Source of the DNA: Minisyncoccota bacterium
GTDB lineage: Bacteria > Patescibacteriota > Minisyncoccia > Phycocordibacterales > SBAW01
Reading direction: 5' to 3'
Length of the DNA stretch: 64,000 bases
Assembly: GCA_035546615.1 (NCBI GenBank)
Contig: DASZWM010000006.1
Span: 32,001 to 96,000 of the forward strand
Made by a program: the position numbers and the translations under genes. The notes beneath the pieces are model-generated. The model was not told where the DNA came from. It ran no database searches and saw nothing but the letters and a program-made list of their open reading frames with translations. The stretch's first letter is position 1. Every line of letters begins with the position of its first letter. Shown here in pieces: positions 2,678 to 3,586 of this stretch.

Positions 2678-3586
2678 ATGGCAAATAGGCACCTATCCCG
2701 CTCAGTTGTCCTACAGACGCTCTTTGAGTGGGACATCCGCAATGCTTCGTCCGAAGGGGCGGGGGATGCCCTTGCGCGCAATGCCGCGGAGTTTGCTCCG
2801 GCGGCGGGCGACCTGCCGTTTATGGAAGACTTGCTCAAGGGAACTCTTTCCCGCAAAGCGGACCTTGATATGGTCATTGAAAAGGCGGCGCCCGAGTGGC
2901 CGCTTGATCGCATCGCGCCTGTGGACCGCAATGTCCTGAGGCTCGGGCTCTACGAGCTTCTTTTTGCCGACCGCGACAAGGTTCCGGCAAAGGTGGCGAT
3001 AAACGAGGCTATTGAGCTGGCGAAGTCCTTCGGCGGCGAGAATTCCGGACGCTTCGTCAACGGCGTGCTCGGCGCCGTGTACAAGGAGCTCGGCGAGCCG
3101 GGCAAGGACGAAGTCTCCAAGAAAAAGAAGGACGTTCCGTACGAGGAAATGCCGGTCCAGCACCTGGGCGGCGCTGTCGTCTACGCGCGCCAGGGCAAGG
3201 ACCTGTATCTGGCGCTCGTGCACGATATCTTCGGCCACTGGACGCTCTCTAAGGGCAAAATAGGCGACAAGCCCGAATTCGCCAACGAAACGGTGGAGGA
3301 AGGCACGATACGCGAGATAAAAGAGGAGATAGGCCTGGACATAACGCTCAAGGAGAAGATAGGCGAGAACGAGTACGTCGCAAGCGACCCGAAGACCGGC
3401 AAGAAGCGCAAGCACGTCACCTACTTCCTTGCGGAGTCGCCGTTCGCCGAAGTAAAGCTCGAGCAGAAAGGCGGGCTCGACGACGCGCGATGGTTCAAGC
3501 TACAGGACGCGCTCGACCTCAATTTCTACGAAGATATGCTCCCGCTCGTTACAAAAGCAGTGCAAAGATTAGCCCAAGAGAAATAG
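2678..3586 (+). CDS. nusB: NusB (transcription antitermination factor) fused to a C-terminal NUDIX hydrolase domain.
   Basis: Residues 1-143 match NusB ([10 protein letters not shown]..., [25 protein letters not shown]). A lysine-rich linker follows. The C-terminal ~140 aa carry a Nudix box (E-x7-REIKEEIGL). Confidence 0.8.
   Translation: [302 protein letters not shown]

Follow-up and report, generated by a model that had tools for sequence, protein, structure and literature searches.

What would a Nudix-fold domain be doing in covalent union with NusB, the factor whose joint binding with S10 to boxA RNA is the nucleating step of the ribosomal antitermination complex? The question is raised by a single gene, here called nusB::nudix, at positions 2678-3586 (+) of a 64,000-nucleotide stretch of a Minisyncoccota bacterium genome (assembly GCA_035546615.1, contig DASZWM010000006.1, positions 32,001 to 96,000 of the forward strand), termed the window below. 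Characterised NusB proteins are stand-alone polypeptides of ~130-160 residues, and we know of no enzymatic or nucleotide-binding module described as a covalent part of NusB—a module that binds or hydrolyses nucleotides, built into this very factor, would be unexpected to specialists in transcription and RNA decay. Our analysis led to two main findings: the fusion is genuine and old, with purifying selection maintaining it in a fixed rpmF-nusB-rnc locus of Paceibacteria, and the pattern of residue conservation places the family-wide constraint on the Nudix fold and its adenine/phosphate pocket, not on catalysis.

The open reading frame (ORF) extends from the ATG at 2678 to the TAG at 3584-3586 and encodes 302 amino acids, with no internal stop or change of frame. 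The GC-rich DNA of this region yields long spurious ORFs in other frames, so the reading frame was validated by homology and not by ORF length. An all-helical NusB domain (residues 1-138; 2678-3091, +) is followed by a flexible Lys/Glu-rich linker (residues 139-159; 3092-3154, +) and a Nudix-fold domain (residues 160-298; 3155-3571, +), in keeping with an earlier note on this DNA, made from the sequence alone, that had recognised a complete NusB, a Lys-rich linker and a NUDIX domain in one frame. The domain search which that note proposed placed both halves above their curated gathering scores, with PF01029 (NusB) matching residues 7-136 (E=5.4e-35; 121 bits against a cut-off of 23.1) and PF00293 (NUDIX) matching residues 165-290 (E=7.7e-13; 49.1 bits against 21.1). 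Structure prediction with AlphaFold2 (AF2) returned two well-folded domains joined by a disordered linker, with a predicted local distance difference test (pLDDT) score of 92.9; the linker is the sole low-confidence part of the model, and pLDDT falls below 50 at residues 145-149.

Could such an ORF simply be an artefact, an adjacent nusB and Nudix gene joined by a sequencing or assembly frameshift? The window derives from a metagenome-assembled genome (MAG), and an A-rich run in its linker, AAGAAAAAGAAG (~3121-3132), is a plausible place for indel errors. However, a continuous ORF of 296-333 amino acids recurs across hundreds of independent assemblies (one copy at a contig end has 278 residues), in which linkers differ and domains stay co-linear. 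This recurrence excludes a join by assembly or frameshift, and with it the stop or frameshift between the two domains that the earlier note had named as its refutation; we give the artefact practically no chance. The same protein sequence (100% identity) has been recorded from a Candidatus Paceibacterota MAG, and both Pfam domains were found in all 120 of the best-matching 90%-identity clusters (81-93% identical, 297-323 amino acids), whose members were drawn from NCBI, JGI, ENA and Logan assemblies. An exhaustive search with HMMER over 1.8 billion representatives clustered at 50% identity returned 144 matches at E<=1e-30, of which ~55 are full-length two-domain proteins with identities down to ~30%. 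A further scan, with one genome per species, located the fusion in at least 80 GTDB species, with a co-linear match from residue 1 to ~300; counts over species loci given below refer to the 80 that were listed among these. The listed loci bear the labels Adler-, Kaiser-, Nomura-, Taylor- and Lloydbacteria, Paceibacterota and Parcubacteria, and in one of them (L054) the contig ends at residue 282. The database survey suggested in the earlier note therefore finds the architecture in more than 120 clusters, at least 80 GTDB species and ~55 distant representatives. The statement in that note that NusB is normally a stand-alone factor is true in general, but the fusion is common in Paceibacteria and not a one-off.

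Conservation of the Nudix half, taken as a whole, comes close to that of the NusB half (mean pairwise identity 44% versus 55%). The linker behaves differently—its length and sequence vary among lineages, and both domains nevertheless remain in frame throughout the family alignment. Two ways in which the halves might be released as separate proteins were considered and discarded. A programmed frameshift in the A-rich linker is an unlikely source of a stand-alone NusB, as the -1 frame continues for ~48 further codons without stopping (ORF 3012-3263) and the run is not conserved; an internal start at M157, giving a free Nudix protein, would depend on a Met that is unconserved in the family alignment. 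The fusion proteins carry the database name "transcription antitermination factor NusB", and a full-text literature search on NusB, Nudix, Parcubacteria and the candidate phyla radiation (CPR), and antitermination returned nothing on a NusB-Nudix architecture. Each half is a member of a known family; it is their combination that appears to be new.

The NusB half is canonical and displays no sign of degeneration. The NCBIfam equivalog model TIGR01951 (nusB) matches residues 4-137 over model positions 2-130 of 131, with 122.8 bits against a cut-off of 88.35, and the AF2 model of this half contains seven helices at pLDDT >90. Its closest structures in Foldseek are M. tuberculosis NusB (1eyv), the Aquifex NusB-NusE-RNA complex (3r2d) and E. 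coli NusB-S10 (3imq), with template-modelling scores (TMt) of 0.83-0.87 and root-mean-square deviations (rmsd) of 1.5-3.6 Å. A 26-residue stretch is almost identical to its E. coli NusB counterpart. Positional equivalences with the E. coli protein include R4=R6, R8=R10, F16=Y18, W18=W20 and N122=D118, with F126, N128 and G129 also present; the D118 position is also an Asn in nusB101, the variant crystallised in 3imq. The functional meaning of the N-terminal Arg motif, the aromatic at Y18, the D118 region and F122-x-N-G comes from E. coli NusB genetics. Across the fusion family, R4, R8, E93, F126, N128 and G129 show little or no variation. Set beside the E. coli, M. tuberculosis and Aquifex proteins, the first 138 residues can be matched from end to end and share the fold, the N-terminal Arg, the aromatic at the Y18 position and the NGVL motif, whereas the query carries a C-terminal extension of ~160 residues made up of the linker and the Nudix domain. 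A partial parallel exists in RsmB/Sun, the 16S rRNA m5C methyltransferase, in which a NusB-like N-terminal domain is likewise fused to an enzyme acting on rRNA; its catalytic domain is, however, a methyltransferase, and its NusB-like domain is not the NusB of the cell. RsmB models do match the NusB half of the query, but over residues 8-151 only and with 62 bits against a cut-off of 319, and the C-terminal half is Nudix; RsmB/Sun was accordingly rejected as the identity of the protein.

A candidate RNA target for this NusB lies directly in front of its own gene. The boxA-like element GCTCTTTCATA (2663-2673, +), a candidate NusB/S10 site, ends 4 nt before the ATG and agrees at 10 of 11 positions, as a single site, with the consensus GYTCTTTAANA used by Baniulyte et al. 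(PMC5725501); the corresponding stretch of the gene's own leader is GCUCUUUCAUA. In 28 of the 80 species, the core G[CT]TCTT is present in the 35 nt that precede the fusion ATG, at -24 to -7, and one-mismatch variants precede the gene in many other species loci. Among the controls, it was found before 0/42 rnc, 0/74 rpmF and 1/29 rnhB genes, in 2% of random windows and in 0-3/79 of windows further upstream of the fusion, and the logo of the element across the family reads G-Y-T-C-T-T-T-[C/A]-A. This distribution is most simply read as autoregulation of NusB through a boxA beside its own start codon, and it lends indirect support to the NusB half as a working boxA binder. Nus-factor autoregulation has been shown for suhB in E. 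coli; a boxA-like element before the fusion gene would extend it to a distant phylum. The window holds four boxA-like matches, a number that does not exceed chance (1.9 expected), and the others (5788, -; 26160, +; 48334, +) were set aside, those at 26160 and 48334 lying inside ORFs. As a separate observation, a TATACT hexamer resembling a -10 element stands 8-9 nt upstream of the boxA-like motif in four of the species loci (L005, L006, L013 and L057) and not in the query; it would place the RNA 5' end right at boxA, with a very short leader, which is suggestive only. A sigma-70 promoter scan of positions 1900-4600 gave no matches.

What, then, is the second half of the protein? The Nudix domain matches many Nudix structures in Foldseek with a probability of 1.00, the best being the Aquifex diadenosine tetraphosphate (Ap4A) hydrolase 3i7u (E=3e-10, TMt 0.89, rmsd 2.1 Å), followed by Rv2985 ("Nudix diadenosine polyphosphatase"), Ndx1, MutT1, the C. 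elegans and human Ap4A hydrolases and CT771 with Ap4A products; 9cxx, 1vc8, 1ktg, 4mpo and 3u53 are also among the top structures. A phmmer search of the PDB gives as nearest by sequence Chlamydia CT771, the T. thermophilus diadenosine hexaphosphate (Ap6A) hydrolase Ndx1, mycobacterial MutT1/Rv2985, Dcp2 and human NUDT2. In a BLASTP alignment with NUDT2, the sequence of which was confirmed to be identical to PDB 3u53_A, the query residues K192, R212-E213, E216-E217, Y233, Y249, W272, Y284 and D286 correspond to K42, R57-E58, E61-E62, Y82, Y93, W116, F128 and E130, respectively. The roles of four of these residues in Ap4A hydrolases are described: Tyr82 and Phe128 make stacking contacts with the adenine ring, whose amino group (N6) is contacted by Glu130, and Lys42 grips the P1 phosphate (PMC4734340). 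A Tyr or Phe ~17 residues after the box is a signature of the Nudix members of this class (PMC2425470). The matching Tyr of the query, Y233 (codon 3374-3376, +), stands 13 residues past the box and not at ~17 (16-18), because the intervening loop is shorter; Y284-E285-D286 (3527-3535, +) supply the second stacking aromatic and the acidic residue. On the strength of the closest structures and the NUDT2-aligned stacking and phosphate residues, we place the Nudix half, by sequence and model, in the diadenosine polyphosphate (ApnA; Ap4A/Ap6A) hydrolase class.

The catalytic set of the query is complete. The Nudix box (3254-3337, +) reads G193-x10-E204-x7-R212 E213 I K E216 E217 I G219 L220, with all conserved residues of GX5EX7REUXEEXGU present, and thus contains the E-x7-REIKEEIGL motif picked out in the earlier note, with the refinement that the spacing from Gly to Glu is 10 where the canonical value is 5. 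The difference stems from a KPEFA insertion at residues 198-202 (3269-3283, +), which turns GX5E into GX10E; it is peculiar to the query clade, occurring in 117 of 119 close clusters and 15 of the 80 species, and is missing from most of the family. The likeness to the ApnA hydrolases (3i7u, Ndx1, Rv2985/MutT1, NUDT2 and CT771) covers W-x-x-x-K-G, the Nudix helix and both aromatics (the signature Tyr and the second stacking residue), whereas the query domain differs in its fusion to NusB, in Gx10E versus Gx5E and in the position of the Tyr (13 versus ~17 past the box). Other Nudix subfamilies fared poorly. The RppH model (NF001936 and relatives) matched a short stretch with 14.2 bits where the cut-off is 118 (E=0.03), and RppH is absent from the closest structures; the NudC-type NAD(H) diphosphatase model (NF001299) reached 20.3 bits against 158, and the query lacks the SQPWPFPxS motif; MutT and NudI models in NCBIfam stayed far under their curated cut-offs. 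The possibility of NAD decapping raised in the earlier note consequently finds no backing in NudC-type membership, and a place in the RppH family is no better supported.

An ApnA-class domain on a boxA-binding protein leads us to favour, tentatively and at somewhat less than even chances, a reading based on sequence and on analogy: docking of NusB at boxA would bring the Nudix pocket to an adenine-nucleotide polyphosphate, which would be cut in the query clade and bound elsewhere. NusB and S10 would dock on boxA near the 5' end of nascent pre-rRNA, and probably also on the boxA-like site in the leader of the gene itself, and the flexible linker of ~20 residues would tether the Nudix domain close to the transcript 5' terminus. 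There, the pocket would bind its ligand—most likely a 5'-terminal pppA or an Np4-type cap, alternatively free Ap4A or ATP. In the query clade the ligand would be hydrolysed, a 5'-end deprotection like that by RppH or NUDT2 that could ready the leader for decay once RNase III, the product of the next gene, has freed it; in lineages with a decayed box, the same pocket would only bind. The transcript 5' terminus appears the likeliest ligand on three counts: the ApnA-class enzyme NUDT2 converts PPP-RNA to P-RNA (PMC8616924); Np4 caps and 5' pyrophosphate are substrates of RppH, which belongs to another Nudix subfamily (PMC8833179); and RNA polymerase uses dinucleoside polyphosphates as initiators, with Np4A caps occurring on bacterial RNA (PMC7044304). 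The neighbouring gene fits this reading as well, given the part that RNase III plays in pre-rRNA processing and the help of the antitermination complex in 30S biogenesis (PMC10250234).

Two known enzymes offer analogies. RppH deprotects RNA 5' ends in the manner proposed for the fusion, but the analogy is functional only, given how far its family model stays under the cut-off for the query. Dcp2 combines a helical N-terminal domain with a Nudix domain acting on RNA 5' caps, and Foldseek aligns it over ~260 columns; however, it is eukaryotic and the rmsd is 11-14 Å, so that domain order alone is analogous. The suggestion in the earlier note that the fusion couples antitermination to RNA 5'-end chemistry is thus reasonable for an ApnA-class Nudix domain, considering that members of the class, including NUDT2, trim PPP-RNA, but catalysis cannot be the universal reason for the fusion, as the comparison of box and pocket across the family makes clear.

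Within the query clade, represented by 119 close clusters, E204, R212, E216 and E217 are kept in 119/119 and E213 in 117/119; since the full catalytic box is retained, the Nudix domain is probably active there. The picture changes in a diverse set of 131 sequences, made up of the 80 listed species, 50 distant representatives and the query. A box with each of its seven conserved positions is found in 39 members and all five key residues in 42, whereas 56 keep three or fewer of the five, and most fusions outside the query clade have their catalytic glutamates partly replaced, unlike the ApnA hydrolases. The Glu of "RE", E213, survives in 47/131 (at least 30 changes), compared with 98/131 for E204 (24 changes) and 97/131 for R212 (20 changes); change counts are rough parsimony minima on a quick neighbour-joining tree of the NusB half alone. 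By contrast, each of the residues W188, K192, Y233, Y249, W272 and Y284 is kept in 127-129 members with 1-4 changes, position 233 is Y or F in 129/131, Y284 is found in 129/131 and D286 in 91%. Even in the 56 most degenerate members, conservation stands at 98% for K192 and Y284, 95% for D286 and W272, 93% for Y233, 91% for K245 and 86% for Y249. To judge from these alignments, the box has decayed many times independently, with intact boxes scattered over the tree, and it is the fold and the adenine/phosphate pocket that selection maintains family-wide. With the pocket residues Y233, Y284 and K192 ~95-98% conserved and the catalytic Glu in 47/131, the shared function of the family looks like adenine-nucleotide or 5'-end binding, with hydrolysis optional.

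The same numbers invite another explanation, in which the Nudix domain serves the antitermination complex chiefly without catalysis—as a sensor of Ap4A or ATP, or as a scaffold—and the intact box of the query is ancestral and secondary. The 20-30 changes at each of E213, E204 and R212 are what this explanation would predict, as is the retention of W188, K192, Y233, K245, Y249, W272, Y284 and D286 at 86-98% in the 56 most degenerate members, one of which (P0252) is still predicted by AF2 as a confident two-domain protein with NusB and Nudix folds (pLDDT 91.5). Precedents exist on both the transcription and the Nudix side. SuhB, an enzyme fold (inositol monophosphatase), is an integral part of the NusB/E-boxA complex in the E. 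coli ribosomal RNA transcription antitermination complex (rrnTAC; PMC6614801, PMC6614797) and is needed for stable integration of NusB/E into it (PMC6614801); it may be a functional analogue of the Nudix domain, but it is a separate polypeptide of unrelated fold, and no homology is implied. CFIm25/NUDT21 is a Nudix fold in an RNA-processing complex which, with a degenerate box that lacks two glutamates, binds Ap4A (Kd ~2.4 uM) and ATP and does not hydrolyse them (PMC2425470), and which also binds RNA; it is eukaryotic, however, and the query box is intact and not degenerate. Against a purely binding role, all five catalytic residues are intact in the query, in 41 further members of the diverse set and in 117-119 of the 119 clusters of the query clade, E217 persists in 119/131, and the structure predictions give no sign of a fixed interface. 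We regard this explanation as possible, though on the unlikely side.

Did the fusion arise by the merger of two neighbouring genes? The fusion gene lies between rpmF, encoding ribosomal protein L32 (2364-2600, +), and rnc, encoding the pre-rRNA-processing enzyme RNase III (3652-4344, +); rpmF is upstream in 75/80 listed loci, rnc is directly downstream in 78/80, and the order rnhB-rpmF-nusB::nudix-rnc-smc is nearly always kept. In the window, Pfam identifies RNase HII, ribosomal protein L32, RNase III and an SMC-type ATPase as neighbours, with RNase R on the other strand. The gap between the fusion and rnc is often negative or <20 nt in the species loci, which suggests that the two genes are co-transcribed. 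Related lineages known from metagenome contigs (L084, L085 and L086) share the rpmF-nusB-rnc order and encode a stand-alone NusB of 140-152 amino acids, ~50-53% identical to the NusB half, and none of these contigs has a Nudix gene of its own between nusB and rnc. What this points to is gain of the Nudix domain at a fixed locus, or its loss from there, and not a merger of two neighbouring genes. One candidate for a stand-alone Nudix relative, a 149-residue protein (P0227), was dismissed: it begins at a contig edge and is followed by rnc, hence a truncated fusion.

These stand-alone relatives also bear on a third explanation, a fusion of convenience, in which a housekeeping Ap4A/ApnA (or oxidised-nucleotide) hydrolase has been joined to nusB and the halves work independently and uncoupled. 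NusB needs no Nudix domain in the lineages where it stands alone at the same locus; the genomes of CPR bacteria are compact and streamlined, and fused domains are a frequent feature of them; gene overlaps are common at the locus, as the often negative gap to rnc illustrates; and the flexible linker, the domains without fixed contact in the AF2 model and the free-nucleotide enzymes among the closest relatives would all suit such a protein. Yet the fusion persists to ~30% identity and in at least 80 species, the search turned up no locus with the halves as separate neighbouring genes, and a housekeeping hydrolase that loses its catalytic residues should decay or vanish, whereas here the fold and the pocket are kept. 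We consider mere convenience unlikely.

The reading in which boxA docking presents an adenine-nucleotide polyphosphate to the Nudix pocket must itself be weighed against several observations. Hydrolysis cannot be the family-wide reason for the fusion, because E213 is retained in only 47/131 and 56/131 members keep no more than three of the five key residues. The predicted template modelling scores of 0.69 for the query and 0.55 for P0252 indicate no fixed orientation between the domains, and the proteins closest in structure act on free dinucleoside polyphosphates and are not specialised for RNA. Synteny alone is weak evidence for a link between the Nudix domain and RNase III, since a stand-alone nusB occupies the same locus in relatives and the rnc-smc linkage is an old arrangement found in other bacteria too, as in the B. 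subtilis rnc-smc-ftsY operon. Finally, the position of boxA near the 5' end of the pre-rRNA of these organisms is assumed.

A bolder version of boxA-directed nucleotide recognition, which we hold to be improbable, would make the Nudix domain of Paceibacteria a new accessory subunit built into the rRNA antitermination complex, a clamp for adenine nucleotides or 5' ends that is catalytic in some clades and binding-only in others. If true, NusB would sense Ap4A or ATP, or would recognise or modify the 5' terminus of boxA transcripts, whether pppA or an Np4A cap, and rRNA synthesis and NusB translation would be coupled to the nucleotide or alarmone status of organisms in which the usual regulators may be missing. 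To our knowledge, the transcription and RNA-decay machinery of CPR bacteria is almost unstudied, and a fusion conserved across a class of ultra-small, host-dependent bacteria offers a handle on how they regulate rRNA synthesis and on whether antitermination complexes act at RNA 5' ends. The natural pairs of intact and decayed boxes around the same pocket likewise provide a route to the change of the Nudix fold from enzyme to binding module.

Several further features of the window deserve mention. The stop codon of the fusion gene is the first of four TAGs with a 7-nt period (3584, 3591, 3598 and 3605; element at 3584-3607, +; TAGGGTA/TAGCCAC/TAGCCAA/TAG), which place stops in all three frames—the earlier note had rightly seen the frame end in the TAG that opens a heptamer repeat. 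The pattern TAGN4TAGN4TAG occurs five times in the window against 0.15 expected. The element is found again at 3616-3632 (-), and the same heptamers recur in another order at 19306-19329 (+), after a TAA stop at ~19292 and before a terminator-like hairpin. None of the ten closest relatives inspected has it in the corresponding intergenic spacer; the element is specific to this genome and does not belong to the conserved locus. Immediately ahead of the rnc start codon, a G-free, C/A-rich run of ~40 nt with CCCTAA-like repeats (ccctacaccctaaaccctaaccaccaaaccctactccc; 3611-3651, +) has no obvious Shine-Dalgarno sequence, and its complementary strand is rich in GGG runs. Beyond rnc, the SMC-type ORF (4509-6872, +; 787 amino acids) matches SMC_N over both ends, with no SMC hinge reported by Pfam; its product may be a shortened or hinge-less SMC-like protein, conserved beside rnc in relatives. 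Far downstream, positions 63083-63199 (+) match the Rfam LOOT RNA (RF03000) with 88 bits against a gathering score of 46.4.

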